Virus record (IMG/VR): IMGVR_UViG_3300025011_000002
Origin: a virus
Taxonomy: Duplodnaviria; Heunggongvirae; Uroviricota; Caudoviricetes
DNA: 64,000 nt
Direction: 5' to 3' (one strand)
The notes under the pieces were generated by a model. The model ran no database searches. It saw nothing but the letters and a program-made list of their open reading frames with translations, and was not told the origin of the DNA. The position numbers were made by a program, and so were the translations under genes. This document shows positions 6,941-64,000 of this stretch, piece after piece (positions within the stretch are counted from its first letter, which is position 1; every line of letters begins with the position of its first letter).

Positions 6941-6949
6941 AGCGACCCA

Positions 6950-7527: not shown

Positions 7528-7528
7528 A

Positions 7529-7604: not shown

Positions 7605-7615
7605 AAAAATAAATA

Positions 7616-7687: not shown

Positions 7688-7707
7688 ATAAGAATATAAA
7701 TAACTTT

Positions 7708-32333: not shown

Positions 32334-32352
32334 AATTTTACCTCTTTCTAAT

Positions 32353-36006: not shown

Positions 36007-36019
36007 ATGGAAGATAAAA

Positions 36020-43876: not shown

Positions 43877-44816
43877 AATAAGTTTTGCTGGTGGCGGTAG
43901 TGATTTAAAAGAACACTATAAAAAATATGGTGGTGCTGTTTTGTCTGTCACAATAAATAAATATATATATCTTTCAATGCATCCTTATTTTGAAAAAGAT
44001 AAATATATTCTTAAATATTCAGAAATTGAAAAAACTAATTCAGTTAATAATATTCAACATAGAATTATTAAACAAGTTTTTAAAAATTATAATATAAAGG
44101 GAGTAGATTTTAATTCAAGTGCAGACATTCCATCTGGAACTGGATTGGGTTCTTCGTCTGCATTTACAGCAGGATTAATAAACTTATGTAATTCATATAA
44201 CAATGAAAAAATAAGCAAAGAAGATATTGCCAATGAAGCTTGCGATGTTGAGATAAACCAATTAAATTGCCCGATAGGAAAACAAGACCAATATGCTTCA
44301 ACTTATGGAGGATTAAACTTTATATTATTTAATCAAGATTGTTCTGTTACAGTTAAAAAGACTAATATGATTGAATGGAAAAAAGATAAATTGGAAAATA
44401 ATTTATTGTTATTCTATCTTGGCAAAACAAGGTCAGCAGACAAGGTTTTAAATACATATAATAGTAATAATAATAATTTAATAAAAATGGTTGACTTAGC
44501 ATATAGTTTAAATTCATCACTAAGTAAGAATAATATAGATTCAGTTGGAGATATTCTACATACAGGATGGATGTATAAGAAAGAGTTATCATCTGAAATA
44601 AGCAATACAGATATAGATTATTATTATAATTTAGCCATTAAAAATGGGGCAGAAGGTGGGAAACTATTAGGTGCTGGTGGGGGAGGATTTTTATTATTTT
44701 ATGTCAAAGAGGAAAATCAAGAGCGATTAAGAAATGTTTTAAGCGTTCTGAAAGAAGTAAGTTTTAAGTTTGAAGACAAAGGAGCAAGTATAATATATGA
44801 TGATGACGATAGATAA
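43842..44816 (+). CDS. hddA: GHMP kinase, D-glycero-alpha-D-manno-heptose 7-phosphate kinase-like (HddA)
   Basis: N-terminal 'RTPFRISFAGGGSDL'; GHMP motif 'PSGTGLGSSSAFTAGL'. Confidence 0.7.
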   Translation: MLEMIISRTPFRISFAGGGSDLKEHYKKYGGAVLSVTINKYIYLSMHPYFEKDKYILKYSEIEKTNSVNNIQHRIIKQVFKNYNIKGVDFNSSADIPSGTGLGSSSAFTAGLINLCNSYNNEKISKEDIANEACDVEINQLNCPIGKQDQYASTYGGLNFILFNQDCSVTVKKTNMIEWKKDKLENNLLLFYLGKTRSADKVLNTYNSNNNNLIKMVDLAYSLNSSLSKNNIDSVGDILHTGWMYKKELSSEISNTDIDYYYNLAIKNGAEGGKLLGAGGGGFLLFYVKEENQERLRNVLSVLKEVSFKFEDKGASIIYDDDDR

Positions 44817-45357
44817 TTATTTTGACAGATTAAAAAAGACTATTGATAATATTGATAAAGAAGAGATAAAAAATGTTGTAAATATACTTTTAAAAGCAAG
44901 GGCTAATGAAAAGCAAATATTTATAATGGGTAATGGAGGAAGTGCATCTACGGCTTCTCATTTTGCTTGTGATATAAATAAAGGTACAAAACAAAAAGAT
45001 AAAAAACCGTTTAGGGTAATATGTTTAAATGATAATATACCTACAATGTTGGCTTATGCAAACGACAGTAATTATGATAATATTTTTATAGAGCAGTTAG
45101 AAAATCTATTAAAACCAGGAGATGTCGTAATCGGAATATCTGGAAGTGGAAATTCTAATAATATTATAAATGCAATTGGATTTTCAAATTTTTTAAAAAT
45201 AACAACTGTGGGAATAACAGGCTTCGATGGGGGAATGTTAAAACAAATGAGTAAGCATTCTATTAATACAAATATAGATGATATGCAGATTTCTGAAGAC
45301 ATACATATGATATTGGTTCATGTAATAATGAAAGCTATATTGAATGAAAAATTATAA
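44797..45357 (+). CDS. gmhA: SIS-domain phosphoheptose isomerase
   Basis: 'IFIMGNGGSASTASHFACDINKG'. Confidence 0.75.
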   Translation: MMMTIDNYFDRLKKTIDNIDKEEIKNVVNILLKARANEKQIFIMGNGGSASTASHFACDINKGTKQKDKKPFRVICLNDNIPTMLAYANDSNYDNIFIEQLENLLKPGDVVIGISGSGNSNNIINAIGFSNFLKITTVGITGFDGGMLKQMSKHSINTNIDDMQISEDIHMILVHVIMKAILNEKL

Positions 45358-46099
45358 ATTAGTTGTTTTATTTGCACAATATGGTAATGAACAATATCCT
45401 GATGCACATAAAGATTTAGATAATTTTTTAAAAGATATTAATTGTAGTAAACAAAAAATTATAATAGATAATAAAACTGCATGTGATTATGATTATGTTT
45501 TTCCAAATGGAAATATTTATATACAAGGAGATAATTCAGCATGGGAATTTAGTGCTTGGGATAAGGGATTAAAATATGTTAAAGATTTAAATGTAGAATA
45601 TGATGCAATATTATTTGTAAACAGTTCTTTTATGAACAGCAGAATAAAAGGAATTGGTGGAAATCCAAAAACAGTTATAAATAATGAGTCAATAAGACTT
45701 TGCATTGAAGATAATAAAGCTATATTCCCTTGGCTCACAACAGGGGATAAATATTTTAAATTAGATAATAATGATGTAAGTTCTTGGTATAGAACAAATT
45801 GTTTCTTGTTAAATAAAAATCATATTAACGTCTTGCAATTTATTCAAACATATGATATAATATATTTAGATAAATTCATTAATAAAGAAATATCAGACAA
45901 TTATTTTAAAGCTGACGCTCCAATGAACAAGATATTAAAAGATTTTATAATATGGAGATTAACAGAAAGTTGGCATAATCCAATAGATATAAAAGAATCT
46001 TGGTCATTATTTAAAATGAAAACATTGGGATATTTTAATGAGTTTGGTTTAACGGCACGATTAAGGAATTGCAAAATAAATGTTATTTCAGAACAATAA
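45344..46099 (+). CDS. hypothetical protein, paralog of 48813..49856 (possible glycosyltransferase)
   Basis: Shares 'YKLVVLF.QY...YP', 'GDNSAWEFSAWDKGL.Y.K', 'YDAILFVN.SF', 'NWH' blocks with 48813..49856. Confidence 0.35.
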   Translation: MKNYKLVVLFAQYGNEQYPDAHKDLDNFLKDINCSKQKIIIDNKTACDYDYVFPNGNIYIQGDNSAWEFSAWDKGLKYVKDLNVEYDAILFVNSSFMNSRIKGIGGNPKTVINNESIRLCIEDNKAIFPWLTTGDKYFKLDNNDVSSWYRTNCFLLNKNHINVLQFIQTYDIIYLDKFINKEISDNYFKADAPMNKILKDFIIWRLTESWHNPIDIKESWSLFKMKTLGYFNEFGLTARLRNCKINVISEQ

Positions 46100-47261
46100 A
46101 AAAATAAAAATTGTTTTTTTATTTCAAGTTGCTTCGTTCTGGGCATCATGGGATTCATTCTATAATGAGTGTATAAAAGATGATAGACTTGAAATAAAAA
46201 TGGTTTTATTTGATGAAGAAATTTGCGAAAAAAGTCAAATGAAAACTGCAAGGGTGTTTTTAGAAAAAAATAATATTTCATTTATAGAATATAAGGATTA
46301 TAATATAGATAAAGATTGTCCTGATATTTGGGTGATGCAAACGCCTTATGATGAAGGGCATAGACCACTAGAGTTAAGGTCTGACTATATAAAAAACAAA
46401 GGAATAAAGATTGTTTATATAACTTATGGAATAGAAATATCTAATACTGTTGAATCAATAAATGCTCACTTCTTAAAAGGTGTTCCACAGAATGCATGGA
46501 AAATATATACTTTTTCTCTATTAATTAAAAAAGATTATGATAAATATATATCTCCAGAAATAACAAGAGCATTAGGGCATCCAAAGTTTGATGGATTGTA
46601 CAATAAAAATAATTTTCCATTGCCAGAAAATATTAAACAAAAAGCAAATGGAAGAAAAATTATATTATGGAAAGTTCATTTTCCAAAGATATTTTCAATA
46701 CCAAATACAGATAAAATTCATTATGTTACACCAGACTTTGAAGAATATAAAAAATTTTTAAATGAAATAAAAAAACATAAAGATTTATATTTTATATTTA
46801 TGCCTCATCCAAAGTTTTTTGAAATGATTTTAGAATACAATATTTTAAATGAACAAGAAATTAAAGACTTACAGAATGAATTAAACAGTTATGATAACTT
46901 ATATATGTATTTAGAAGATGATTATAGACCTATAATTTTGAATGCAGATTGTATAATTACTGATAGGTCTGCAATAATGGTAGAGGCATCGGTAGCAGAA
47001 AAGCCAATATTATATATGTATAATAATAAAAATATAGAGGCTATGACAGATGCTATATCTGAATTAATAAATACATATTATACTGGTGACACTTGTGAAG
47101 ATATGATAAATTTTATAGAAATGTTTAAAAGAGGTGAAGATATAAAAAAACAAGAAAGATTAAGTGCAATAAAGAAATATATTCCATTTTTTGATGGAAA
47201 TGCAGGTAAAAGAATTAAAGAAGATATTATATCTTCTTTTGAAAATGAAGCGATGGAGTAA
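46080..47261 (+). CDS. CDP-glycerol glycerophosphotransferase (TagB/TagF)-family protein
   Basis: 'ADCIITDRSAIMVEASVAEKPILYM' resembles the TagF-family C-terminal signature. Confidence 0.4.
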   Translation: MLFQNNKKIKIVFLFQVASFWASWDSFYNECIKDDRLEIKMVLFDEEICEKSQMKTARVFLEKNNISFIEYKDYNIDKDCPDIWVMQTPYDEGHRPLELRSDYIKNKGIKIVYITYGIEISNTVESINAHFLKGVPQNAWKIYTFSLLIKKDYDKYISPEITRALGHPKFDGLYNKNNFPLPENIKQKANGRKIILWKVHFPKIFSIPNTDKIHYVTPDFEEYKKFLNEIKKHKDLYFIFMPHPKFFEMILEYNILNEQEIKDLQNELNSYDNLYMYLEDDYRPIILNADCIITDRSAIMVEASVAEKPILYMYNNKNIEAMTDAISELINTYYTGDTCEDMINFIEMFKRGEDIKKQERLSAIKKYIPFFDGNAGKRIKEDIISSFENEAME

Positions 47262-47264
47262 ATA

Positions 47265-47840
47265 ATGGATTTAAATTTTACAGGTGAAAGACAGGTAAGT
47301 AAAACACTAGAGGGTATTGAAAAAAAACATTTAGATAGATATTGTTTTGCTAAAAATAAGGTAAGAGAGTTATTATCAAAAGATAATATAAAAATATCTG
47401 ATATTGGTTGTGGTATTGGATATGGTTCATCTATATTATCTGAACTTAATTGCTCTATTGATTCATACGACATATCAAAAGAAGCAATTGATTTTGCTAA
47501 CAAATATTATAAGAAAGACAATATAAATTATTTTACAAAAGACTGTTCTGATTCTGATTTTTTAACAAAACATTATGATGTAATTGTGTCTTTTGAATTT
47601 TTAGAACATATTAATATTGATAAATCTAAAAAAATATTACATAGAATTATTGAAAAAAGCGATTTATCAATTATATCTATCCCTATAAATAAGCCTTCGC
47701 CTTTTCATAAAATAGTATTAAAAAAAGAAGAAGTTAAACAATACTATGACGAGGCGTTGAAAAGTTTTTCAAATAAACATATAATAGAAGAATGGATTCA
47801 AGATACTATATTTTACATAGTAGTAATAGGATTAAAATAA
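47265..47840 (+). CDS. class I SAM-dependent methyltransferase
   Basis: Motif I 'ISDIGCGIGYGS'; 'VSFEFLEH'. Confidence 0.6.
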   Translation: MDLNFTGERQVSKTLEGIEKKHLDRYCFAKNKVRELLSKDNIKISDIGCGIGYGSSILSELNCSIDSYDISKEAIDFANKYYKKDNINYFTKDCSDSDFLTKHYDVIVSFEFLEHINIDKSKKILHRIIEKSDLSIISIPINKPSPFHKIVLKKEEVKQYYDEALKSFSNKHIIEEWIQDTIFYIVVIGLK

Positions 47841-48823
47841 TGACAATATATTTTAGAACACCCGAAAACCCAAACCCTTGTGGTGGCATAAAAAAGTTAT
47901 ATGACCAAACAGATATTCTTAATAAAAATGGTATTGAGGCATATGTAATTCACTTTGATAAAACAGAAACTTTTAGATGCGATTGGTTTGAAAATGATAC
48001 AAAAATAGTTTATAATAAAACACTTATTCAAGAAGATGATATAGTTGTTATCCCAGAAATATATGATTACCATATGTTTAATTTATTCCCTAAAGGCAAA
48101 AAGGTTATATTCAATCAAAATGCTTATAATACATTCAGACCATATGGAACAATAAATGATAATAGTATATTAAATTATAACAATCCCGACTTGCTTGGAG
48201 TTATGGTTGTTTCTGAAGATAATAAAAAATATTTAGAACTTGCTTTTCCAAATAATAAAATTTACAGGATTCATATATCAATCGACACAGATAAATTCTT
48301 TCCAAAAGAAAATAAGAAAAAACAAATATGTTATATGCCGAGAAAAAATAAACAGGATGTTGACCAAGTAATAAGTATTTTAAAATTAAGAGGTTACTTA
48401 AAAGATTATAATTTTGTGGCTATTGAAAATATGACAGAAGAAGAATTAATAAAAACTTATCAAGAATCTGAAATATTTTTAAGTTTTGGTTATCCAGAAG
48501 GTTGTGCAGCTCCTCCACTTGAAGCAATGGCTTGTGGATGTATAGTTATTGGATATACAGGAATGGGATGTAGAGAATATATGAATACAGATTATTCTTT
48601 CCCAATTGAACATGGGGATATAGTCTCTTTTGTAAAAACAATAGAAGAAAAGATTTATTCATTTAATGCAATTAACAACTGCCCTTATTATAATGAATTT
48701 GAAAATTTAAACAACAAAGCTATTAAATTTATAAAAGAAAATTATACAAAAGAAAGAGAAAAATCAGATATATTAAATTTTTGGAACGAAATATTAAATA
48801 AAGGAAATAATAATGTATTATAA
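47840..48823 (+). CDS. glycosyltransferase (GT-B fold, GT4-like)
   Basis: 'EGCAAPPLEAMACGCIVIGYTGMGCREYM' matches the GT4 C-terminal motif. Start moved to internal ATG (MTIYFRT) to avoid overlap. Confidence 0.6.
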   Translation: MTIYFRTPENPNPCGGIKKLYDQTDILNKNGIEAYVIHFDKTETFRCDWFENDTKIVYNKTLIQEDDIVVIPEIYDYHMFNLFPKGKKVIFNQNAYNTFRPYGTINDNSILNYNNPDLLGVMVVSEDNKKYLELAFPNNKIYRIHISIDTDKFFPKENKKKQICYMPRKNKQDVDQVISILKLRGYLKDYNFVAIENMTEEELIKTYQESEIFLSFGYPEGCAAPPLEAMACGCIVIGYTGMGCREYMNTDYSFPIEHGDIVSFVKTIEEKIYSFNAINNCPYYNEFENLNNKAIKFIKENYTKEREKSDILNFWNEILNKGNNNVL

Positions 48824-51983: not shown

Positions 51984-52835
51984 ATGTTAGATTTACATAA
52001 AGATTTTGAAATATTTAACTTTCCAGGTGGAGAAGTTAATGTAAGATTAAAAAATTTTCCAACAGATGATTGTTTTATTGTAACATTAATAGCAAGATTA
52101 AAAAATTCTAACGATATAATGTCATTATTATTAGCTGTGGATGTATTAAAAAGAGAAAATGTTTTTATTAATGAATTAATAATACCATATTTTCCATATG
52201 CAAGACAAGATAGAGTTTGTAATAAAGGCGAAGCATTATCTGTTAAAGTTATAGCAGATTTAATTAATAGTTTAAATATACCAAAAGTAACAATATTAGA
52301 CCCACATTCAGATGTAACTCCTGCATTAATTAATAATGTAAATATTATTAGTCAAGTAGAATGTTTTACTAAATCAATGTGGAATTTTGGTAAATCTAAT
52401 TTAGAAATTAGAAATGATTATTATATTATTTGTCCTGATGCTGGAGCAAGAAAAAGGATTGATACTATAGCTAAAGAAGTGCAAACAGATAAGGTTATAT
52501 ATTTTAATAAAAAAAGAGATTTATTAACTGGAAATATTTTAGGGATAGATTCTGAATATCAAAATTTTAAAAATAAAAAATGTATTATTATTGATGATAT
52601 TTGTGATGGTGGTCGTACATTTATAGAAATAGCTAAATATTTAAAATCATATGATGCTGATGAAATTATTTTATATATTACTCATGGTATTTTTAGTAAA
52701 GGTCTTGAATGCTTAAAAGAAGCAGGAATAGATAAAATATTTACTACCAATAGTTATCAAGAAATTGATGATAGATATTTGAATAAAGGTACGGTTCCTC
52801 AAGTTTTACAATATGATATATTTCAAGGAATTTAA
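51984..52835 (+). CDS. prs: ribose-phosphate pyrophosphokinase (PRPP synthetase)
   Basis: 'IIPYFPYARQDRV' and PRPP-binding 'CIIIDDICDGGRT'. Confidence 0.8.
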   Translation: MLDLHKDFEIFNFPGGEVNVRLKNFPTDDCFIVTLIARLKNSNDIMSLLLAVDVLKRENVFINELIIPYFPYARQDRVCNKGEALSVKVIADLINSLNIPKVTILDPHSDVTPALINNVNIISQVECFTKSMWNFGKSNLEIRNDYYIICPDAGARKRIDTIAKEVQTDKVIYFNKKRDLLTGNILGIDSEYQNFKNKKCIIIDDICDGGRTFIEIAKYLKSYDADEIILYITHGIFSKGLECLKEAGIDKIFTTNSYQEIDDRYLNKGTVPQVLQYDIFQGI

Positions 52836-53112
52836 TATGATTGGGTATAAAGCTTTTTCTAAAAATATGACAAATAGAAAAGGATATATTTTTAATATAG
52901 ATAAAGAACTTATTTATCATATTAATAAGCCTATAAAATTAAGAGGAACAGGATTTCATTTTTGTAAAAATATTTTATCTTGCCTTATATGGTATCAAAA
53001 TATTTTTAATATTACAATATATAAAATAGAAATTTTAGGAGATGTAATAGATAGTAAATTTACACCTAAGTCAGTAACTAATAAATTTAGATTTATAGAA
53101 AAAGTATTTTAA
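52813..53112 (+). CDS. hypothetical protein
   Basis: 99-aa ORF between prs and nadV. Confidence 0.3.
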   Translation: MIYFKEFNMIGYKAFSKNMTNRKGYIFNIDKELIYHINKPIKLRGTGFHFCKNILSCLIWYQNIFNITIYKIEILGDVIDSKFTPKSVTNKFRFIEKVF

Positions 53113-53129
53113 TAAATAAGGAGAAAAAT

Positions 53130-54641
53130 ATGAAAAAATTACCAGCAACATTACTTTGTGATTTTTATAAAATAAGTCATAGAGAACAATATGATGAAGA
53201 CACAGAACAAATTTATTCTACTTGGACTGCAAGAGGTTCAAGAATAGAAGGAATTAATAAAGTTGTTGTTTTTGGACTTCAAGGATTTATTAAAAAATAT
53301 CTTATTGATTATTTTAATGAGAATTTCTTTAATCGTTCTTGGCAAGAAGTTGTTTCTGAATATAAAAGAGTTATTAAATATACATTAAATATTGATAATC
53401 CAAGCATACAACATATATGGGATTTGCATGAATTAGGATATTTACCATTATTAATTGAAGCAGTACCAGAAGGAACAAAATTACCAATAAGAGTTCCATC
53501 AGCAACAGTAAGAAATACACATCCTAAATTTTTCTGGCTAACAAATTTTATTGAAACATTACTTTCATGTGAAACTTGGCAACCAACAACATCTGCTACA
53601 ATAGCGAATAGTTATAAAAATATATTAAAAAAATGGTCAGATAAAACTTGCGATAATGATTACCATGTTCCATTTCAAGGTCATGATTTTTCAATGAGAG
53701 GTATGCCTTGTTTAGAAGCAGCATGCACATCTGGAGCAGGACATCTTTTAAGTTTTGTTGGAACAGATACAATTCCTGCAATATTATATCTTGAAAATTA
53801 CTATAATGCGGATATTGAAAAAGAACTTGTAGGTACTTCTATACCAGCTACAGAACATTCTGTAATGTGTTGCAATGGAAGAGACGAATATAGTTCTATT
53901 AAAAGATTAATAACTGAAGTTTATCCAAATGGATTTGTTTCTATAGTTTCTGATACTTGGAATTTATGGGATATATTAACAAAAACATTACCAAAATTAA
54001 AAGATGAAATAATGAATCGTGATGGTAGAGTCGTTATAAGACCAGATAGCGGTAATCCTGTAGATATTATTTGTGGAACAAGAAGAGAAATAGAAACAAG
54101 AGAACTTTCAAATATTAATGAAATTAGAAAAGGTGTTATTGAGTCACTTTGGGATGTATTTGGTGGTACAATAAATTCAAAAGGATATAAAGTATTAGAT
54201 TCTCATATAGGGGCTATATATGGTGATGCTATCACTATGGAGAGAGCAGAAGAAATATGTAGTAGACTTGAAGAAAAAGGATTTGCAAGTAGCAATATTG
54301 TTTTTGGCATTGGTTCATTTACTTATACTTATAATACAAGAGATACATTTGGATTCGCTCAAAAATCAACATATGCTGTAAAAGGCGGTCAAGAAGTCTT
54401 CCTATATAAAGACCCTATAACAGATGATGGTCTTAAAAAATCACAAAAAGGCTTAGTTTATGTTTTGGATTTAGAAGGGAATATTACATATAAAGATGAA
54501 TTTAATATACAAGAGCATGAAAAATTACAACCATTTGGACTATTAAGACCTATATTTAAAAATGGAGAATTATTAGTAGATGAAAATCTTGCAGAAATAA
54601 GAAAAAGGGTAGAAGATAATGAATTATTACGATATTCGTAG
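53130..54641 (+). CDS. nadV: nicotinamide phosphoribosyltransferase (NAMPT/NadV)
   Basis: 'VVVFGLQGFIKKYL', 'IEAVPEGTKLP...KFFWLTNFIETLL', 'FQGHDFSMRG...SFVGTDT', 'IRPDSGNPVD' align with NAMPT conserved blocks. Confidence 0.85.
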   Translation: MKKLPATLLCDFYKISHREQYDEDTEQIYSTWTARGSRIEGINKVVVFGLQGFIKKYLIDYFNENFFNRSWQEVVSEYKRVIKYTLNIDNPSIQHIWDLHELGYLPLLIEAVPEGTKLPIRVPSATVRNTHPKFFWLTNFIETLLSCETWQPTTSATIANSYKNILKKWSDKTCDNDYHVPFQGHDFSMRGMPCLEAACTSGAGHLLSFVGTDTIPAILYLENYYNADIEKELVGTSIPATEHSVMCCNGRDEYSSIKRLITEVYPNGFVSIVSDTWNLWDILTKTLPKLKDEIMNRDGRVVIRPDSGNPVDIICGTRREIETRELSNINEIRKGVIESLWDVFGGTINSKGYKVLDSHIGAIYGDAITMERAEEICSRLEEKGFASSNIVFGIGSFTYTYNTRDTFGFAQKSTYAVKGGQEVFLYKDPITDDGLKKSQKGLVYVLDLEGNITYKDEFNIQEHEKLQPFGLLRPIFKNGELLVDENLAEIRKRVEDNELLRYS

Positions 54642-55602
54642 AGAGATTAAAGATTTAGTAAGACAAAAAGGAGGATTCTGTAATGCTCATTCTCATCTTG
54701 ATAAATCTTATACTTTAACGAAAGATAATAAAGATATTTGTAATAAACATTTAAAAAATAAATGGAATTTAATAGATAGTATAAAAAGAAATAGTACAAT
54801 ATATGATATAAAAGATAGAATAGAATATTCTCTTATAAAACAAACATTATATAATACTCATAATATTTTAACATTTATAGATGTTGATAGCGTTGCTAAA
54901 AGTACAGGTCTTGAGGCTTTAGAATTAGCTAAAGAAAATTATTTAGCAACGCAAATATATTCTGCTAATCAAACAATTAAAGGAATATTAAATAAAAAAG
55001 AATACGAATGGTTTTTAAAAGGAGCAGAACAATGTGATTTTATAGGAAGTTTACCTAAAGTAGATGATAATATAGAATTACATTTAGATATACTATTTGA
55101 TACTGCTAAAAATTTTAATAAACACATACAAATTCATTGTGACCAATTTTCTTTAATAGAAGAAAAAGAAACAGAATTAATATTAAAATATATAGATAAA
55201 TATAATTGGCAAGGCAAAGTATCATTAATACATTGTCTTTCTTTAGCTTCTCAAGAAAAGTCTTATAGGTATAAAATATATGAAAAATTAGAAGAAACAA
55301 GAACAAATATAATTATAGCTCCATTAATTTGGATTGATACACCAAGAAATGAAGAATTACAACCTCGTCATAATTGTTTAACTCCAGTAGATGAAATGTT
55401 AGAATTTAACATTAATATAGCTATGGGAACAGATAATATTTCTGATTTAAATGGTATGTTGTCAAATGGAGATATGATGGAAGAATTAATCTTTTTAATT
55501 CGAGCATGTAGATTATATAATAAAATAGAAGAATGTATTAATATAGCCACAATAAATGGTAATAAGATTATAAATAATAGATTAAATAATAATATAATTT
55601 AA
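54619..55602 (+). CDS. amidohydrolase-fold deaminase/hydrolase (CodA-like metal-binding motifs)
   Basis: 'CNAHSHLDKS', 'IQIHCDQ', 'LIHCLS', 'AMGTDNISD' match the H-x-H...H...H...D metal ligands of the amidohydrolase superfamily. Confidence 0.55.
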   Translation: MNYYDIRREIKDLVRQKGGFCNAHSHLDKSYTLTKDNKDICNKHLKNKWNLIDSIKRNSTIYDIKDRIEYSLIKQTLYNTHNILTFIDVDSVAKSTGLEALELAKENYLATQIYSANQTIKGILNKKEYEWFLKGAEQCDFIGSLPKVDDNIELHLDILFDTAKNFNKHIQIHCDQFSLIEEKETELILKYIDKYNWQGKVSLIHCLSLASQEKSYRYKIYEKLEETRTNIIIAPLIWIDTPRNEELQPRHNCLTPVDEMLEFNINIAMGTDNISDLNGMLSNGDMMEELIFLIRACRLYNKIEECINIATINGNKIINNRLNNNII

Positions 55603-55799: not shown

Positions 55800-56210
55800 A
55801 TGCATAATATAACTCCAGATAATACATTATTTATTTTTGGATGCGGAGAATCAAATTATAATGAATTGCTACCATATATAGCACATATACAAGCAAATTG
55901 GAAAACATTAGGCATGAATATGTTTAATTGTTTCCATTATGGCTGTACATATTGGAATTGGAATGATTTATATGTTTGGAGTAGATTTCTTCAAGATAAA
56001 TATTTAGAAATAGAAGACATAAAAAAACCTCGTCTTGTGACTACAGACGAGGTTAATAAAAAAGAGGTATTAACATCAAGTATAAAACCATATTATACTT
56101 ATGATATTATTAGAGAATCTTTATATAATTTTAAAAAACATATTAATATATATAAAACAAATCATAATGATTTAGATTTAGAATATATTGATATAAAAGA
56201 AATAATTTAA
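55800..56210 (+). CDS. truncated paralog of 49846..50466 (internal deletion copy)
   Basis: 136 aa. Shares the N-terminal and C-terminal blocks with 49846..50466 but lacks ~70 central residues. Confidence 0.35.
   Translation: MHNITPDNTLFIFGCGESNYNELLPYIAHIQANWKTLGMNMFNCFHYGCTYWNWNDLYVWSRFLQDKYLEIEDIKKPRLVTTDEVNKKEVLTSSIKPYYTYDIIRESLYNFKKHINIYKTNHNDLDLEYIDIKEII
56112..56210 (+). repeat. ~99-bp direct repeat (copy 2) bracketing the NAD island
   Basis: See copy 1. Confidence 0.6.
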
Positions 56211-56377
56211 GTAGAAGTTGTTTTTAATTTTCCATTTTCATCAAATTGTAATTTTTCTAATATAACTAATATTGCATCTAAAGTTACTTTTGACGAAACA
56301 GATTCATCATATATTTTTTTTAACCATTCATTTGAACCTTGAGCCATTTTTAATCTCTCTTTCTTTTTTTTAAATAA

Positions 56378-58357
56378 CTAACCTAATATTCCAGGTAAAT
56401 TATTGATTGTCATATTCTCATCCTGAATTAATTTTCCAAAAGTTCCTGCCCCTGTAATTTGAGAAGATTGAGTATTCCAAATATCTAAAGCTCCTAAACC
56501 AGTTGATAATATTAGTGGTACTGGTTGCCCTTGATACCAAAAATCAAAAGTTCCTGTATTTAAAGCTGTTCCTGCAATTATAAAGTCATCAAAATATATT
56601 GCTCCTGCTGCTGATTGTCCAGATATAGTTAATAAAGCTTGCGTGTTCTCTGTTGGAGTTCCTATAACAACAAACTGAATCCATTCATCGTGTGTATCTG
56701 GCATAGTCCAAACATTAGTCGTCATTCCTGCGCCAGACAAAGCAACTGTTGGATTCGCAACATCTGTATAATCAGAAGTTTTCTTAATGTAACCTGTTAC
56801 AGCAATTGGAGTTCCAGCTACCGCCATCACATTAAATTTTTGTGTTACAGCTATTGAATTGCTTATAAAATTCATTCCAACACAAATTGAACCTGTTCTA
56901 TAGTTTGTTATATCTTTTTCAATATACCCACTTACTTGATAAACACGATTTATTACAGAGGCATCTTTCATTTCACAGTTATCAAACGCAATTGCTGAAT
57001 TTTGAAGTATAGATGAAAGATTAGTTATAAAGTTTGTGGAATTAAATGAGCAATTTTGAAAATAATGTTGAGTTAAGTTAGTAGAGCACACTAAATCATA
57101 AGTATTATACTGGTTTACTGATGCGCCTACTCCAAAATTGCTACTATAAAAACTTATATCGCTTGTTAAGCCATTTGCTAAAAATACTCCTTGATAACAA
57201 GCATAAGCATTTAAGTTTGTATAAACGTCATTTGCCCCTCCGTTAAAGTATGTCCCGCTATAACAGCCTACAGAATTTATATTAGTCATGGCATTAGCGT
57301 TACTGTAGTTATGAAATATTGATGTCCTTCCGCTAAAAACATTAAAATTACTAATGCTTGAATTAGTGGACTGGTATAAATAAACAGGGTATCCACTTTG
57401 AGCGTTTGGATTGTAGAAAACTAAATTATTAATAGTAATTTCTGCTCTTGCTGTATAAAGAACTATTCCAGAATAGTTTGCAGTATTGTCTTTGGGATTA
57501 TAAATAACAACATCATTAAAGGTTGCTCTACTGTAACCATTTTGAGCATATAAACAATAAGAGGCATTTGAAGCCGTTGCAGATGACGGAGCAAAAGAAG
57601 TACCAAGATAACTTAAAGAAACATTATCAAGAACATGTTTGCTGGCATCTTGTAATTGAGTAGTAGCTCCCCAATAATAAGATGTATTAAAAGCAGTTAA
57701 TATAATATTTTTAGTAATATTAGAAATATCTGTATTTGCAAGATGTGTATAACTTAAATTTGTTGTTAAAGTTACGGCAACATCAGCACCCGAAGAATCT
57801 ATGGATTGAACTATTTTATTTTCAATATGTAAATAATTAGTATCGGGGGTTGCAATAACTAAATTATCACCTTCATAAACTAAAGTTCCTGAAGGAAGAT
57901 GTATAACTGCTTGTCCTAAGTCAGCTTGAGCAGTTAATAAAGTGTTAGTTGTTCTTTCTGCTCCATATAGTAAAATACTACTTGTTGCACTCGAATCTGT
58001 TATAATTCCGTATTTGTTGTTTGCTGGACTTCCATTATATCCATTAAATTTATATGTAACAGTACTTGCTACAGGAACTCTTGACCCCGAAGAGCCAACC
58101 AACCATGAGCAACCACTTTTTAAATTTAAATTTCCTTTAAAAATTGCAGTCCTTGAAGCTGTTGTATCTGGTGTGAATGTTCCGTAAAGAGTTAAAGCAG
58201 AAGTTGAAGAATCTGCACCGATTGTTATATCTTGGTCTTGGGTTACAATATGTCCTGCTGCAATAGTAACTGTGTCACCATCAATAGGAATTATTCCTCC
58301 AGTCCATGTTGAGGTATCTGACCAAGCTCCTGTTTGTGCTGAAGTTATTGCTGTCAT
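56378..58357 (-). CDS. tail fibre/tailspike protein, predicted right-handed beta-helix
   Basis: 659 aa, S/T/N/G-rich with periodic N/T-x-x-N repeats. N-terminal 'WSDTSTWTGGIIPIDGDTVTIAAGHIVT' is typical of pectate-lyase-fold tailspikes. Confidence 0.45.
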   Translation of the reverse strand: MTAITSAQTGAWSDTSTWTGGIIPIDGDTVTIAAGHIVTQDQDITIGADSSTSALTLYGTFTPDTTASRTAIFKGNLNLKSGCSWLVGSSGSRVPVASTVTYKFNGYNGSPANNKYGIITDSSATSSILLYGAERTTNTLLTAQADLGQAVIHLPSGTLVYEGDNLVIATPDTNYLHIENKIVQSIDSSGADVAVTLTTNLSYTHLANTDISNITKNIILTAFNTSYYWGATTQLQDASKHVLDNVSLSYLGTSFAPSSATASNASYCLYAQNGYSRATFNDVVIYNPKDNTANYSGIVLYTARAEITINNLVFYNPNAQSGYPVYLYQSTNSSISNFNVFSGRTSIFHNYSNANAMTNINSVGCYSGTYFNGGANDVYTNLNAYACYQGVFLANGLTSDISFYSSNFGVGASVNQYNTYDLVCSTNLTQHYFQNCSFNSTNFITNLSSILQNSAIAFDNCEMKDASVINRVYQVSGYIEKDITNYRTGSICVGMNFISNSIAVTQKFNVMAVAGTPIAVTGYIKKTSDYTDVANPTVALSGAGMTTNVWTMPDTHDEWIQFVVIGTPTENTQALLTISGQSAAGAIYFDDFIIAGTALNTGTFDFWYQGQPVPLILSTGLGALDIWNTQSSQITGAGTFGKLIQDENMTINNLPGILG

Positions 58358-58360
58358 ATA

Positions 58361-58741
58361 TTATACCCATCCTATAAATAAATTGTTATTATATTGTGCT
58401 GTTTGAGTTAAAACCAATGTATCATCTGATAAATAACTTTTCTTTTGATTTATACTATTATCTTCATTATAAGAAAATACTATATAGTTGTTATTTGTAT
58501 ATGTTTTTTGTATTACTTGGTTGTTGTCATTATAACCAAGAGAGAAATTACCAGAAAAAACATCTATATCTGCTTTTAGATTTAAAGCAGCAGACAAACC
58601 ATTTATAGTGGAAATATCCTGTGTATGTGATATCGGAGTTCTTGCATCTGAAAGTCTGAAATCATTTGTATCAACTTTGTTTAACAAGTCATTTGTCAAG
58701 CCTTTTATTTGATTTTGCTTTATTCTTTCTCTACCAGTCAT
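58361..58741 (-). CDS. hypothetical tail-associated protein
   Basis: 126 aa, N/Y/T-rich. Confidence 0.3.
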   Translation of the reverse strand: MTGRERIKQNQIKGLTNDLLNKVDTNDFRLSDARTPISHTQDISTINGLSAALNLKADIDVFSGNFSLGYNDNNQVIQKTYTNNNYIVFSYNEDNSINQKKSYLSDDTLVLTQTAQYNNNLFIGWV

Positions 58742-58744
58742 AAC

Positions 58745-61024
58745 TTATGTCCTTTTAAAGAGTAAAATATTAATAGTATTGGCTTTTAGCTCTACCGAAT
58801 TGTTAATAATACTAAGATTATTAAAATTATAAGAAATTTTTCTTATTTCAGAAGGATTAGCCTCGCTGTCATTAATATTTAAAACATTATAATCTAGCGG
58901 TAATCCTTCGCCAATAACAATACTTTTCTTGAACTCACAATTAGAAGGTAAATCCAAATTAATAGTCCTATCAGAACCTATGTTTACAATAATTACAGAC
59001 ATCTTGCCTGTATCATAAGTTGCTGCAATTTCTACATTATGATTATTGGATTCAGTCTTTAGAACATTTTTATAAATATATTTATTAAATAGCTTTATGA
59101 TGTGAGCTGTCGGTAAAAGGATAAAGGATTTTAGTTTATCTGTCTCAAAAGTTCTAAGCAGAACCCCAAAAGAATCAGATAAAAATTTAGAACTTGAAGT
59201 TGTATAAACGTCTAGTAATTCAAAATGACAGAGTTCCATAAAACCTAATGTATTGACTGCCGACAATATAGTTCTAGCATTAGCCAAAGCTCCTAAGTAT
59301 GATGACATATTTCTATCCGACAAATTAAAAGCGTTAAATTCTCCAACTATTATTTTTGGGTTAGTTACACCGCCATTAATTAAAGTTCTATAACAGTTAT
59401 CTCTGATTATTATATTATGTCCATTTAATGTTTGGTCAATACAATTTTCAAAAGTATTAAAAGTTGGGTTGTCGGAAGCTTTTTGATTTAAACTTTTTTC
59501 ATACGCAACAGAGTAATAATAATGTGGTGCATAATAAATATTTCCATCGTTTTTATAATTATCTAAATGTCCAGAAGCAAGCATGTCTTCGCCAAAAACA
59601 TGTCCCATTACATAATAAGCCCAATAATCTGAATCTCCTTCCGTAAAAGTAAGCATTACTTTTAAATTAGAATCGACTTCACGCATTTTTTCGATAAAAA
59701 CAGAAGCAAGCTGTGCATATTCAGAAGCTAAAAAATAATTGCTATAAGCCCCAATAGCGTAATCTTCATTACCTATTTCCCAATAAGCAATTAAATCTGC
59801 ATTTCCTGAATCATAAATATATTGAACTAATTCTTTGGCTGATGCAGCCATCTTATCAACTAATTCCCAATCTACATTACCACCGTTGCCTGTCGGATAA
59901 TCAGTATTTGTTAATAAATGAGTTCCATCTTTTGTAAAACTAATTGTTTTTGTTTCTTTGTCAAAATAAGCATGATTATTAACTTGCATTATTATTTTTA
60001 AATTATGCTCTCGGCAATAAGCCAGTATATCGTCGACAAACCACATATTTTCACGACTAATGTTTTTGAGATAAGAAGCTCTCCAAAAAGTCCAATTATT
60101 AAATCCTTCGATTAAATCGTTGTAAGGTATATCCCAAAAAAATGAAGCAACATATACACCTGAAGGAAACCTAAGCGTCTTTATTCCTAAAAATTTTGTA
60201 AAGTCTGCAAGAGTTTTTAATTGATTATTTTGTGTCATCAAATTGGTTGTTCCTGCTGAATTATTAGCATTAAGCCAATTTGAACTTATAAAGCTTGATT
60301 GAGGTAAAGTTTTTATTGTTTCGTTTTCAATAGTTACTATATTTTCAGTTATCTGACTGTCTTTAAAAGCTATTTCATAGTTGTCGCAAATGTCTTTCAT
60401 GGTTAAAACATCGTCATATAAGCGATAACTATATATTTTTACTGGCTTATTTTCAAAAGAAATAAGCTCAAAATCATAAGTATTTACATTATTTATCTTA
60501 TTTGAATTTATTTCCCACCCTGCTTGTATTTTATTGCTATACCCTACTAAATTATAGTTCTCGTCATAAGTTACAACAATATGATGAATTTTATCTCTCC
60601 TTAAGCAAGCCCTTGCACCTGTCATACAGTTTTTAAACCAGCCTACTCCTGTGAAGACAGCTTTTATCCAAAAATACCACACGTTGGCATAAGAATTGTA
60701 ATGTTCTACCATATCTTCCTCAATAGAACATGTTATTTCGATTGAAAACTTAGTACTTAACATTAATTTTTCAGAGTGCGGTATTCTTATTTTACTTAGT
60801 CCGTCACCTAAAAGCCTGACGTAAAAAGGTATATTGTCTCCATCTCCCAAAATTGCTTGACTTAAATTTTCAATTACTGCATTATCGGCAGCCTTATCAG
60901 GATTATAAATTTTTGCAAGGTTATACATACAAAAATTATCGACATCAAGACCGCTATCAGTATTATGATAGGCTCTTAAATCAATTATGCAGTTGTTTGG
61001 TTTTGCAGGAAGTATAAAAGACAT
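58745..61024 (-). CDS. large tail-associated protein with glycoside-hydrolase-like domain (depolymerase candidate)
   Basis: 759 aa. 'AYWEIGNEDYA' is an acid/base motif of TIM-barrel glycosidases. Lies among tail fibre genes. Confidence 0.35.
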   Translation of the reverse strand: MSFILPAKPNNCIIDLRAYHNTDSGLDVDNFCMYNLAKIYNPDKAADNAVIENLSQAILGDGDNIPFYVRLLGDGLSKIRIPHSEKLMLSTKFSIEITCSIEEDMVEHYNSYANVWYFWIKAVFTGVGWFKNCMTGARACLRRDKIHHIVVTYDENYNLVGYSNKIQAGWEINSNKINNVNTYDFELISFENKPVKIYSYRLYDDVLTMKDICDNYEIAFKDSQITENIVTIENETIKTLPQSSFISSNWLNANNSAGTTNLMTQNNQLKTLADFTKFLGIKTLRFPSGVYVASFFWDIPYNDLIEGFNNWTFWRASYLKNISRENMWFVDDILAYCREHNLKIIMQVNNHAYFDKETKTISFTKDGTHLLTNTDYPTGNGGNVDWELVDKMAASAKELVQYIYDSGNADLIAYWEIGNEDYAIGAYSNYFLASEYAQLASVFIEKMREVDSNLKVMLTFTEGDSDYWAYYVMGHVFGEDMLASGHLDNYKNDGNIYYAPHYYYSVAYEKSLNQKASDNPTFNTFENCIDQTLNGHNIIIRDNCYRTLINGGVTNPKIIVGEFNAFNLSDRNMSSYLGALANARTILSAVNTLGFMELCHFELLDVYTTSSSKFLSDSFGVLLRTFETDKLKSFILLPTAHIIKLFNKYIYKNVLKTESNNHNVEIAATYDTGKMSVIIVNIGSDRTINLDLPSNCEFKKSIVIGEGLPLDYNVLNINDSEANPSEIRKISYNFNNLSIINNSVELKANTINILLFKRT

Positions 61025-61033
61025 TATAACCTC

Positions 61034-61816
61034 TTAAAATACATAACTTATAATACCTAACGAATCTTTATATGCTAATTGATTTTGGTCTGTTGAATAA
61101 AAAAAAGAATTTATTGGAGCGTTTACCTCCGCTGAAGCTTTTGGTCGAAAAAATCCATCTCCAATATTAGGTTCTGCTGTAACAGCGTATATTTCTAATT
61201 CATCATCAGCTTCAAGTGCATCATCAAAAGTTAAAATATCTAAAATATAGCTTCCTAAATCATCTGCTGAATAATCTACACTATTAAGCTTAATTCTAAT
61301 ATTTGGATAAGCCTCATCAGTTACGAAAACTTTATTGCTGCCGTCAATATCTCCTGTAAAATTTACAGGTTGCGCTCCTGCTAGAAGATTTTGAGCTGAT
61401 GTTCCATTTATTACACTTACATTAAATTCGTTTGCGCTAAAATTTTGTGAAAAATTTCCATTAATATCTGCTTTTAAATTAATAGCTGTTTGCTGTGCTG
61501 TTGAAATAGGTTTATTAACATCTGATGTATTGTCAACGTTTGATAACCCTACTTGTGTTTTTGTAACAGAATGTGGATTAGATGTTGAACTTATATGATT
61601 TTGAATATTTGTACTTTTTGGCTCATAAACATTTGAATAATCTGGATTTACTTGTGCTCCATATTCTATTCCATCTAATTTATTTTTTTCTATTGTTGTA
61701 TAATCATTAGTAGATAATTGTTTCCCTGTAATTTTATCCACTTTATTATCAAGTAATGTTTCTATATTTTCAGAAGTAAAATAAGCATGACCGTTATAAG
61801 TTAATGCCCCATCCAC
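61034..61816 (-). CDS. tail fibre-like protein
   Basis: 260 aa, N/S/T-rich. Confidence 0.3.
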   Translation of the reverse strand: MDGALTYNGHAYFTSENIETLLDNKVDKITGKQLSTNDYTTIEKNKLDGIEYGAQVNPDYSNVYEPKSTNIQNHISSTSNPHSVTKTQVGLSNVDNTSDVNKPISTAQQTAINLKADINGNFSQNFSANEFNVSVINGTSAQNLLAGAQPVNFTGDIDGSNKVFVTDEAYPNIRIKLNSVDYSADDLGSYILDILTFDDALEADDELEIYAVTAEPNIGDGFFRPKASAEVNAPINSFFYSTDQNQLAYKDSLGIISYVF

Positions 61817-61860
61817 ATCTGTTAGTAGGTCAAGAACAGATAGATTATCGTGAATGTGGC

Positions 61861-62217
61861 TTAGAAAAAATTTCCTTTTATCTGCTCATCTAAATTACTT
61901 ATAGAATCAATTATAGAGTCAACATCTATTTTTATAGGGTCTTCTTTATCTAATTCATCTGGAGTCGTATATCTTTCATAAAGAAATAATGTCTTATAAT
62001 TCTTTGGAATTATTAATTTATATTTATATATACCAGTAGAAGTTTTCGTTACATCTGATACCTTAATTTCTTGTATCTGGTTGCCATTAACATCTTTTAA
62101 TTCAGCACAGAAATTTATAACATCAAAATAATTATCAAGAGTTAATTCATTTGTTCCTGTATAAAATTTTCTTGTTCTCCAATATTCATTACCTTGAATA
62201 ATACTATGTCTTGACAT
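61861..62217 (-). CDS. hypothetical protein
   Basis: 118-aa ORF. Confidence 0.3.
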   Translation of the reverse strand: MSRHSIIQGNEYWRTRKFYTGTNELTLDNYFDVINFCAELKDVNGNQIQEIKVSDVTKTSTGIYKYKLIIPKNYKTLFLYERYTTPDELDKEDPIKIDVDSIIDSISNLDEQIKGNFF

Positions 62218-62229
62218 ATCTTAAATACC

Positions 62230-62604
62230 TTATTTTTTTTCTAATAATTTCTCTGTTAAACTATCAAATTTAGAATGTAAATTATCTATTTTAATATCAG
62301 TTTTATTTGAATTATTTATTACTAATTCTAAAAGTTTATCATAATGCCAATGTTTGCTTTCGCATAAATCTTTTTTTTGAAATATACATTCATTAGAATC
62401 TTTTAAGTCTTCAATTTTTTTATTTAGTTCTTCATAATTATTATCTAATACTTCAGTCATTTCGGTCTTTAAATCCCCAATGCTTTTTGTAATATCTTCT
62501 TTTCTTGCAAAACCTACTTTTATTAAAACTAAACTAATAACAGTTATTACGCCTATTAATATAAATGCTTCTATATTTGGTGCTGTTAAAATTTGTTCTA
62601 TCAT
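62230..62604 (-). CDS. membrane-anchored coiled-coil protein
   Basis: N-terminal TM 'IEAFILIGVITVISLVLI', remainder K/E/L-rich. Confidence 0.3.
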   Translation of the reverse strand: MIEQILTAPNIEAFILIGVITVISLVLIKVGFARKEDITKSIGDLKTEMTEVLDNNYEELNKKIEDLKDSNECIFQKKDLCESKHWHYDKLLELVINNSNKTDIKIDNLHSKFDSLTEKLLEKK

Positions 62605-62672
62605 TTTATATAACTTTCTTTGTTAAAATGCATGCCGTATATATACTATATCTAATATATTTAAAATATTTG

Positions 62673-63560
62673 TTACTGTTTTAAATAAGTAATAATTTTA
62701 TTTATATCTTTTATCCAAATTGTTGAAATATATGAGTCTGCTAAATCCTTTAGCCCTCGTAGGTTTTTATCGCTAACATTATCCATACTTTCAAATTCTG
62801 TAGGACAATCAAATTGAAATCTAAAATATTTTTCATTATCTAATAATTCAGATAAAATATCATGTGTTTTTGAAGTTATTCTATCCATAGTTTCAGGAAT
62901 TAAATGTTTTGCAAAATCATCCCACCAAAACTTTGCAATATCTTTTTGAGACATTTTATCTACTAAAGTGCCAGTTCCTAAACTAACTACAAATAAATCT
63001 TCAAGTTTAGCATCAGTATGTTTTATAGTTTTTACTATCGCTAAGTCAGTTGGGTTTGAGGCATATAGACCGCCATCAAAGCATCCTTCAGAAGCACTAA
63101 AAAATGTTTCTGCTGCGGATGATTTTCTTGTTGCTTGCCATAATTTTATTGATTTTGTTTCAAATGTTGAAAATATAACTCCTTGTCTATTTGACCAATC
63201 ATCCGTAGGAATTAAAAGGTCAATTAAACAATCCCCAAAAGTTTTATCCCCAAAGGTATCTTTTAAAACATTCTCAATATTATTTGAATCATATTTTGGA
63301 CAATGTGTTCCAATAGAATGAAACAAATCTTTTGAAAATATTTTTTTTATTTTATCGCCTATATAAAAACTTATAATATTTTCTACAGGTTCTCCTATTG
63401 AAAGTAATGCTGCTATTATTGCTCCTGTTGAAGTTCCAGCTATTACATCGAACATCTGATATATTTGTTTACCAGTTCTTTTTTCTAAAACATATAAAAT
63501 ACATAAAGGAATAAGACCTCTGCATCCTCCGCCATCAATAGATAATATTTTAGTAGTCAT
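62673..63560 (-). CDS. patatin-like phospholipase
   Basis: Oxyanion 'IDGGGCRGLIP', nucleophile elbow 'AGTSTGAII' (GxSxG), catalytic Asp 'FDGGLYASNP' (DGG). Confidence 0.7.
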   Translation of the reverse strand: MTTKILSIDGGGCRGLIPLCILYVLEKRTGKQIYQMFDVIAGTSTGAIIAALLSIGEPVENIISFYIGDKIKKIFSKDLFHSIGTHCPKYDSNNIENVLKDTFGDKTFGDCLIDLLIPTDDWSNRQGVIFSTFETKSIKLWQATRKSSAAETFFSASEGCFDGGLYASNPTDLAIVKTIKHTDAKLEDLFVVSLGTGTLVDKMSQKDIAKFWWDDFAKHLIPETMDRITSKTHDILSELLDNEKYFRFQFDCPTEFESMDNVSDKNLRGLKDLADSYISTIWIKDINKIITYLKQ

Positions 63561-63573
63561 TTAATTTTCCTTA

Positions 63574-64000
63574 TTATATCTGTGGAGTATATTGTTCTAT
63601 AATTGATTGAGCATACGCATCTTTTTCTTCTGGAGTCATATTAAATACTTGAATTACAAGTTCATCTGGAGCTGTTTTAATCATATTAGATATATTAACA
63701 ATAGTTTGAGTTAAATTATTTACCGTATTAGTTAAGAAGGTATTTAATCTTAATAGTTCTTCTTCTGTTATAGGAACAAATTCATCTAAATAAGGCTCTT
63801 CAGCATGTGTTAAATGAACAAATCTTACATTAGTGACAATAATATTATTTTCATTATCTTTTAAATCTTGAGGGATTGTATTTTTTACTACAATCCATTG
63901 ATTTAAAGTAGAATCTTGTAAATCTGTTTCAATATTTATTGAACCATCTCCAGCTTTATTTATACTAACTATAAATTTTTCTTTTTTCTTTTCAAGTATT
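63574..64000 (-). CDS. hypothetical protein, N-terminus beyond window end
   Basis: Open minus-strand frame from the window edge to the TAA at 63574-63576. Confidence 0.3.
   Translation of the reverse strand, partial: ILEKKKEKFIVSINKAGDGSINIETDLQDSTLNQWIVVKNTIPQDLKDNENNIIVTNVRFVHLTHAEEPYLDEFVPITEEELLRLNTFLTNTVNNLTQTIVNISNMIKTAPDELVIQVFNMTPEEKDAYAQSIIEQYTPQI

Follow-up and report, generated by a model that had tools for sequence, protein, structure and literature searches.

A patatin-like phospholipase gene and the small gene beside it, which encodes a holin-like membrane protein of 124 amino acids (aa), are proposed to form a late lipolytic lysis (membrane-attack) module that contributes to host lysis in a large tailed phage, a reading that we consider about evenly balanced. 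Both genes lie on the minus strand of a 64,000-nucleotide (nt) stretch of DNA, hereafter the window, from IMG/VR virus record IMGVR_UViG_3300025011_000002 (Caudoviricetes), the patatin gene at 62673–63560 and its partner at 62230–62604. The original prediction, made from the sequence alone, had listed host-envelope penetration or lysis, a hijacked effector and an anti-defence decoy as possible functions. Among these, lysis is favoured because of the holin-like pairing, the endolysin beside the pair in a sister phage, and the lysis-gene neighbours of other phage patatins, which include members of glycoside hydrolase (GH) families GH108, GH19 and GH24 and amidase-like proteins.

In the proposed mechanism, the patatin and the 124-aa protein would be made late, from the baseplate and tail-fibre operon. 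The membrane protein would set the timing, give access to the membrane, or recruit the lipase there. The lipase would then hydrolyse host membrane phospholipids, so that lysis is caused or completed and virions are released; in the sister phage the pair would act together with a GH24 endolysin. That the window patatin is lytic, which membrane it targets and what the 124-aa protein does are all points that we infer.

Catalytic motifs and fold of the patatin

The patatin gene has an ATG start and encodes 295 aa with a Ser44/Asp162 dyad. The three motifs on which the prediction was built are present as claimed: GGGCRG in the oxyanion/phosphate loop (G10-G-G-C-R14-G15, within the run D9-G-G-G-C13-R14-G15; block I), GTSTG at the nucleophile elbow (G42-T-S44-T-G46; block II), and the DGG Asp motif (D162-G-G; block IV). 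When the 120 best database homologues were aligned, R14, G15, G42, S44, G46 and D162-G-G proved invariant, the catalytic residues among them. A profile search, one of the checks suggested with the prediction, matched Patatin (PF01734) with E 3.8e-26 and 92.9 bits (cut-off 27.7), over residues 6–175 of the protein and positions 1–191 of the 191 in the profile.

An AlphaFold2 model built on the 120-homologue alignment has a mean predicted local distance difference test (pLDDT) score of 94.6 and a predicted template-modelling (pTM) score of 0.93. When this model was compared with solved structures using Foldseek, template-modelling (TM) scores of 0.80–0.87 were obtained to plant patatin, CapE, AbCapV and another lipase activated by cyclic GMP-AMP (cGAMP), with 0.87 to plant patatin (1oxw) and 0.84 to AbCapV (8zr9). 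The profile score, blocks I, II and IV, and the alpha/beta fold, with agreement well above that expected by chance, place the protein in PF01734/PNPLA. The fold gives no specific link to CapV, because plant patatin fits equally well (0.87 versus 0.80–0.85). The protein belongs to the broad bacterial patatin family that also includes CapV and CapE and, by the tests run, not to the cyclic-oligonucleotide-based antiphage signalling system (CBASS) proper.

The description of the signatures as complete is true of the catalytic motifs, which are all intact, but not of block III. This block, which Banerji and Flieger are said to have defined in 2004 as S-A-A-P, has the form SAAP(T/S)YF, and its proline, present in 115 of the 120 homologues, is Glu151 in the window protein (codon 63108–63110, SAAP to SAAE). 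The glutamate is found only here and in the four closest relatives, the other 115 homologues lacking it, and SAAE appears to be a clade marker of the five closest phage patatins. Based on the intact motifs and the fold, the product is probably a catalytically competent patatin-type phospholipase A or acyl hydrolase, with lipolytic activity predicted. No signal peptide, transmembrane segment or extra domain was found in the 295 aa. Lacking the first two, the patatin is likely to be made in the cytoplasm.

The holin-like partner

The 124-aa protein has one N-terminal transmembrane helix predicted from hydropathy (approximately residues 12–31) followed by a tail in which 40 % of residues are charged; the tail looks coiled-coil, judged by eye, and contains two Cys. 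It is the only small membrane protein of the late operon. A search of 5.8 billion proteins returned only the protein itself, with no homologue at E<=0.01.

For comparison between loci, the gene directly downstream of patatin was scored as holin-like if it encoded 50–160 aa with one N-terminal transmembrane helix and a tail at least 30 % charged. The loci with genes of this kind (L001, L015, and L016–L019) are exactly those of the closest phage clades. A holin-like neighbour therefore appears to be a trait of the close clades, and not of viral patatins at large.

The N-terminal transmembrane helix, coiled coil and two Cys also led to the 124-aa protein being considered as an i-spanin. This was set aside: there is no o-spanin lipoprotein open reading frame (ORF), none of at least 20 aa with a lipobox being found within or adjoining the 124-aa gene, and the charge distribution suggests a cytoplasmic C-terminus. 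Two further membrane proteins are encoded elsewhere on the minus strand of the window, a 67-aa ORF with two predicted transmembrane helices (947–1150) adjoining the RNA ligase gene and a Band_7/SPFH protein (31515–32462) adjoining DnaB; no recognizable lysis gene is near either of them.

Conserved gene order in close relatives

The arrangement is clearest in the sister phage (L009/L015), a 55-kb Mu-like myovirus from the same aquifer samples, with a patatin (P0002) that is 66 % identical. Its genes run in the order 581-aa fibre, 208-aa protein, patatin, 119-aa transmembrane protein, and 162-aa GH24 Phage_lysozyme, where the operon ends. The 119-aa protein has one N-terminal transmembrane helix and a charged tail, and the start codon of the lysozyme gene overlaps the stop codon of the 119-aa gene. 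This arrangement is a lysis cassette headed by patatin. The two phages also correspond upstream: the 581-aa fibre is 45 % identical to the 575-aa fibre of the window phage, and the 208-aa protein has 54 % identity to the 213-aa protein over the N-terminal ~95 aa. The endolysin and the end of the operon in the sister phage occupy the place of five downstream genes in the window phage.

A third backbone, L004, has the order 650 aa, 213 aa, patatin, and baseplate genes that are 65–73 % identical at the DNA level. L001 and L004 share a 2.86-kb block at 99.2 % identity. It starts within the tail-fibre gene, so that the C-terminal part of the fibre is covered, takes in the 213-aa gene, and has patatin (window 62673–63560) as its last gene. 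This indicates a recently exchanged mosaic, probably through recombination of a fibre-tip plus patatin module. In L176, with a 56 % identical patatin, the order is 1083 aa, 206 aa, patatin. A gene of ~210 aa thus lies directly 5′ of patatin in four backbones (213, 213, 208, and 206 aa). In the next clade, 143–190-kb phages of the same aquifer with 39 % identical patatins, a 103-aa protein with an N-terminal transmembrane helix and a charged tail is encoded directly 3′ of patatin.

Position in the late operon

The patatin gene is transcribed late, within a baseplate/tail-fibre operon. On the minus strand of the window, as extended by locus L001, tape measure, Dit-like, sheath-initiator, Baseplate_J and wedge genes are followed by the 575-aa fibre gene, the 213-aa gene, patatin, and the 124-aa gene, and then by genes for 118, 260, 759, 126, 659, and 46 aa. 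The 213-aa gene, of which only the 3′ part is in the window (63574–64000, minus strand, running off the end), is directly 5′ of patatin and ends in a double stop codon. The junction between the two (63561–63573, minus strand) is 13 nt and reads TAA-GGAAAATTAA-ATG, with a Shine-Dalgarno-like AAGGA site 7–11 nt upstream of the patatin ATG. It is too short for a promoter or terminator, and the two genes are therefore likely to be co-transcribed. Between patatin and the 124-aa gene there is an AT-rich spacer of 68 nt (62605–62672, minus strand), in which no terminator-like site was found. A promoter and terminator scan gave matches at chance level.

The five genes downstream on the same strand (118, 260, 759, 126, and 659 aa; 56378–62217, minus strand) are context, outside the module. 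Their per-gene GC is 0.25–0.34 (genome, ~0.25). Matches to tail-fibre PHROGs were obtained for the 260- and 126-aa proteins; with the 575-aa fibre upstream, this bears out the adjacency to tail fibre genes noted in the original prediction. The depolymerase-like neighbour that it also described, the 759-aa protein, could not be supported, having no Pfam, PHROG or PDB sequence match and just an EIGNE-like motif; the 659-aa protein has none of these matches either. PHROGs likewise gave no match for the 213-, 124-, and 118-aa proteins, the L017 neighbours or the ~206-aa proteins.

Distant relatives and their neighbours

Patatins were predicted to be rare in phages, and they are. Relatives were found by tblastn in six of 50,697 deposited phage records, five of them Wolbachia phage WO and one a metagenomic 635-kb phage, with 27–31 % identity (27–29 % for WO) and E 1e-15 to 1e-17. 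The homologue in the 635-kb phage (LR745206.1, 87073–87975; an unannotated record) has 30.5 % identity. A pattern-limited scan found patatin on 157 of 2.9 million IMG/VR contigs. No patatin homologue more than 36 % identical was found in GTDB genomes, and the bacterial homologues at 28–36 % identity are mostly stand-alone genes in housekeeping contexts.

Lysis genes recur beside distant phage patatins. In 66 unique IMG/VR patatin loci, at least 13 Pfam lysis matches are present among the 258 genes within two positions of patatin (Phage_holin_4_1, four; GH108, two; GH19, two; Phage_lysozyme, four; CHAP, one), compared with one match, among the families listed, in 148 genes at least five genes away. 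L011 and L020 have a GH108 endolysin gene directly upstream of patatin. The patatin of L023 is flanked upstream by the gene for a 164-aa protein that is endolysin-like and of the Amidase_2 type, judged by eye from the sequence, and on the downstream side by that for a 65-aa lipoprotein.

Patatin also recurs in a second phage context, near a cluster with a ~675-aa ORF, patatin lying one to three genes upstream of the cluster in ten high-GC contigs (L039, L050, L052, L053, L059, L061, L064, L068, L074, and L085). In L061, Phage_lysozyme is directly upstream of patatin. Pfam matches to the SU10-type portal and the Mu Com zinc ribbon recur near patatin over the whole viral set.

Lysis or entry

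Several observations weigh against a lytic function. Cell lysis by a phage patatin is a proposal wherever it has been raised, WO included. A cytoplasmic, constitutively active lipase would require control, and none was identified. The replacement of the conserved block III proline with Glu may affect activity. The label holin-like is based on simple hydropathy and charge rules, the 124-, 119-, and 103-aa partners are alike in architecture without detectable sequence similarity, and over the 66 viral loci the enrichment of small transmembrane or holin-like neighbours is not significant (Fisher p 0.12–0.24). The enrichment of lysis genes is modest, and its counts cover only the families listed. 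In addition, 84 of the ~123 kb of the genome were read (the window and an extension past its ends), the part for which all genome-wide negatives given here hold, and a full lysis cassette of the canonical kind could lie in the other ~40 kb, a third of the genome. Lastly, no endolysin gene is adjacent to the pair in the window phage, where five tail-fibre-type genes are downstream on the same strand. Because such genes and not an endolysin come next, position alone suits a virion protein equally well.

An alternative is a function in entry. The patatin could be a virion-borne lipase on the baseplate or tail fibres, attached possibly via the ~210-aa protein, and could locally break down lipid of the host membrane or outer membrane while the phage adsorbs and delivers its genome. 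The gene is embedded among same-strand tail-fibre genes, the order of fibre, ~210-aa gene, and patatin is kept in four backbones, and the C-terminal part of the fibre, the 213-aa gene and patatin move as a 99.2 % identical block, as would be expected of a host-surface-specific module. Entry was also raised for WO by Kent et al. (PMC3173496). However, lysis genes too are host-envelope specific and lysis cassettes often directly follow tail-fibre genes, and the mosaic block therefore does not discriminate between entry and lysis. The 295 aa of the patatin make up a catalytic domain and nothing more, so that neither terminus has a further domain for virion docking. In the sister phage it is followed by a transmembrane protein and an endolysin, not by structural genes, and distant phage patatins adjoin endolysins and holins. 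An entry lipase is therefore considered unlikely.

Relation to CBASS

The original prediction drew attention to CapV, the patatin-like effector of CBASS. Membership of the same broad family is supported, but a closer link is not. The protein scores 141.3 bits against NCBIfam CBASS_lipase (NF041079), for which the cut-off is 200. The PADLOC CBASS models for 'Effector phospholipase' match at full length with E 7.6e-54; these models have no curated cut-off and are not by themselves a membership test. By sequence, the nearest solved structures are lipases activated by cGAMP and by cyclic UMP-AMP (cUMP-AMP or cUA; E ~1e-19). No cGAS/DncV-like nucleotidyltransferase (CD-NTase; SMODS/DncV-type) gene adjoins patatin, and none is among the precomputed Pfam matches of the 84 kb.

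AbCapV cannot bind cGAMP, form filaments or be active without residues F147, K149, D159, E207, and R279 (PMC12480259). The K149 and E207 columns were located by consensus numbering and an alignment to 9kh7, so that the positions given here are inferred ones. The K149 equivalent would be Ser131 in the window protein; K or R is present in 92 of the 120 homologues, and K in the CBASS-linked L079, L086, and L154. The basic residue is missing in every member of the phage-associated clade. At the E207 column, which has E or D in 115 of the 120 and E in the same three CBASS-linked loci, the window protein has Lys177, the only Lys among the 120. A further column, first taken as that of D159, is not conserved in CBASS-linked patatins and was dropped.

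A cyclase was detectable at six of 160 patatin loci (five viral, one bacterial), using a CD-NTase profile built from two seeds that may miss divergent cyclases. A Pfam scan of the flanking ORFs of 70 genome loci found no recurrent cyclase, and only two CD-NTases are among the immediate neighbours of patatin in the 66 IMG/VR loci. By the tests run, it is disfavoured that the window patatin is a CBASS effector.

It could nevertheless be an orphan, a nucleotide-activated suicide lipase serving, for example, superinfection exclusion or a response to host or phage cyclic nucleotides. The PADLOC matches and the nearest structures would agree with this, as would the few viral contigs on which patatin and CD-NTase genes are paired (L079, L082, and L086). 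The low CBASS_lipase score, the lack of a SMODS/DncV-type gene in the Pfam matches of the 84 kb, and Ser131 and Lys177 at the K149 and E207 positions all argue against it; moreover, the nearest bacterial homologues (at most 36 % identity) are mostly stand-alone, with no recurrent cyclase neighbour, and a late structural operon is an odd site for a defence gene. A hijacked effector of this kind is quite improbable.

The same bacterial homologues, at 28–36 % identity and mostly in housekeeping contexts, would fit a non-lytic enzyme of lipid metabolism or membrane remodelling, with an auxiliary release of fatty acids or remodelling during infection, and the phage has many auxiliary metabolic genes. 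However, the gene is in a late structural operon, outside the metabolic islands, the holin-like pairing is conserved, and lysis genes are recurrent neighbours in phages, making a purely metabolic function distinctly improbable as well.

A decoy, as raised in the original prediction, could here be an anti-CBASS protein that soaks up host signal or a dominant-negative subunit that caps host CapV filaments. Such a protein matches CapV and CapE in fold and length and would have the company of several genes in counter-defence-type Pfam families (Gad2-like, NAMPT with PRPP synthetase, and RNA repair), but it can be considered highly improbable, as the putative ligand-contact positions are not conserved, making a sponge role unlikely, and all of the catalytic residues, needless for a decoy, are strictly kept in every clade member. 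The gene also sits in a late operon, whereas anti-defence genes are typically expressed early, and it is paired with the gene for a membrane protein and, in the sister phage, with an endolysin gene as well.

Genome context and other features

The identical patatin protein is encoded on at least 24 metagenomic contigs, mostly from Rifle aquifer groundwater (PRJNA268031), several of which are ~123.2 kb. The window spans both ends of the 123,264-bp contig k141_960484 (ENA ERZ27254729), with a 141-nt (= k) overlap; because it crosses the contig ends with this overlap, the assembly is likely to be circular or terminally redundant, of ~123.1 kb. Contigs of 123,250 and 123,605 bp with different start points are present in other samples. 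The genome has 25 % GC, and a DNA megablast of window 56000–64000 against deposited phages gave no match. Genes for DNA polymerase III alpha, DnaB, primase, ligase, and an anaerobic ribonucleotide reductase are present, with 10 tRNAs. Together with the tape measure, Dit-like, sheath-initiator, Baseplate_J, and wedge genes, they indicate a large tailed phage whose baseplate is of the contractile-tail type.

The 10 tRNA genes (Trp, Thr, Met, Gln, Asp, Ser, His, Tyr, Cys, and Asn) are on the minus strand at 3728–7688, where local GC rises to 0.34. Two of the replication and nucleotide genes have features of mobile elements: in the 937-aa DnaG primase (35984–38797) there is a faint LAGLIDADG match between duplicated Zn-ribbon matches, a possible intein, and NrdD (11085–13103) is split from an NrdG-like Fer4_12 gene (9942–10400) by a GIY-YIG homing-endonuclease gene (10397–11107).

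An NAD-salvage-type set on the plus strand (51984–55602) consists of phosphoribosyl pyrophosphate (PRPP) synthetase (51984–52835), DUF7666 (52837–53112), NAMPT (53130–54641), and, at its end, a weak amidohydrolase-like gene (54619–55602). The set appears to resemble the NAD-reconstitution pathways used by phages in counter-defence. A 214-aa protein (28844–29488, minus strand) has a match to Pfam Gad2 (PF26128), which we take to be an anti-Gabija family, making this a possible counter-defence gene. RNA-repair genes are also present: RNA ligase (1176–2324), RtcB (2501–3733), a CCA-adding enzyme (20162–21478) and a Macro domain protein (21468–21944). A PNKP-type HAD phosphatase just past the start of the window (L013, 14624–15112) is part of this toolkit. 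Finally, a sugar-nucleotide and glycosylation island on the plus strand (41449–48823) has an epimerase/dehydratase, a heptose-pathway-like trio (NTP-transferase, GHMP kinase, and SIS isomerase), Glyphos_transf, a methyltransferase, and a GT1 glycosyltransferase, and may serve host-surface or DNA/virion modification.

Implications of a proposed lipolytic lysis module

Textbook phage lysis is the work of a holin, an endolysin, and a spanin. To our knowledge, lipolytic lysis by a phage is established only for mycobacteriophage LysB. It has been proposed for phage WO, the host of which does not grow in axenic culture. In the literature searched, the window pair would be the first case of patatin with a holin-like gene outside endosymbiont phages, and it may be regarded as a new member of the WO-type cassette kind, which is itself a proposal (PMC9203015). 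The pairing is thus not peculiar to Wolbachia phages, and one relative carries a classical endolysin gene directly beside the pair. Being short (295 aa and 119–124 aa, with or without the 162-aa lysozyme), these genes make a compact, synthesizable test case for E. coli.

The closest solved relatives of the window patatin are CBASS suicide effectors, and the locus therefore bears on how an enzyme that kills from inside serves host abortive infection or phage exit. The most far-reaching possibility, which we regard as doubtful, is that free-living environmental phages have as their principal lysin a CapV-related phospholipase lacking a nucleotide pocket of the AbCapV type. Membrane lipid would be attacked at a time set by a holin-like protein, and this attack would supplement or replace the endolysin/spanin route. 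If true, a single pool of enzymes would supply both phage lysis genes and CBASS suicide effectors, and the idea of patatin lysis in WO would extend well beyond wall-less endosymbionts.

Comparison with known systems

A canonical holin-endolysin-spanin cassette has a peptidoglycan hydrolase gene beside the holin gene, as is seen in the sister phage (L009). There is none beside the pair in the window. Precomputed Pfam matches and phmmer with GH24, GH108, and amidase-like seeds revealed no canonical set of endolysin, holin or spanin genes in the 84 kb, and no endolysin of the GH24, GH108 or Amidase_2 type.

Mycobacteriophage LysB is a lipolytic enzyme of a lysis cassette and attacks the lipid layer of the envelope to complete lysis. 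It is a cutinase-like alpha/beta hydrolase that acts on the mycolyl-arabinogalactan ester, a function shown experimentally. The likeness to the window patatin is that of a phage lipolytic lysis enzyme in principle; the LysB fold is unrelated to patatin and there is no sequence relationship. The bacterial toxins ExoU, VipD, and PlpD share the Ser-Asp dyad and patatin core with the window protein, but fit it less well (TM 0.36–0.61) and have large extra domains or autotransporter modules, secretion signals, and eukaryotic targets.

CapV and CapE (AbCapV; PDB 8zr9, 9kh7, and 9iom) are closest to the window patatin in fold (TM 0.80–0.85) and by sequence, with the same single-domain architecture, length and three catalytic motifs. 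They are cytoplasmic enzymes that destroy the membrane of their own cell, which is also what is predicted for the window patatin. Unlike theirs, its gene belongs to the late operon of a phage and has a holin-like neighbour, and no CD-NTase partner was found in the 84 kb.

The closest parallel in gene arrangement is with phage WO, which lacks a conserved endolysin and in which a tail-proximal patatin was suggested to function in cell exit or entry (Kent et al., 2011; PMC3173496). A 'patatin-based lytic cassette' of patatin, an ankyrin protein, and a holin-like protein has since been proposed (Bordenstein & Bordenstein, 2022; PMC9203015). The WO holin-like protein is described as shorter than 150 aa, with a single N-terminal transmembrane helix and a charged C-terminus that includes a coiled coil (PMC9203015), and WO gwv_1106 (71 aa) and the window 124-aa protein have the same holin-like architecture. 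As in WO, the window patatin gene borders the tail module or lies inside it, downstream of tape-measure, baseplate, and fibre genes. On the other hand, the two patatins have only ~29 % identity, the holin-like gene is downstream of patatin here and upstream in WO, and neither an ankyrin-repeat gene nor a phospholipase D is among the neighbours of the window patatin. The window phage is also a ~123-kb, 25 % GC phage of a free-living aquifer community, with no integrase in the parts read. An exit role for patatin is a hypothesis in both phages. In WO the motive for a lipase was a host without detectable peptidoglycan, whereas the sister of the window phage keeps a GH24 endolysin beside the pair.

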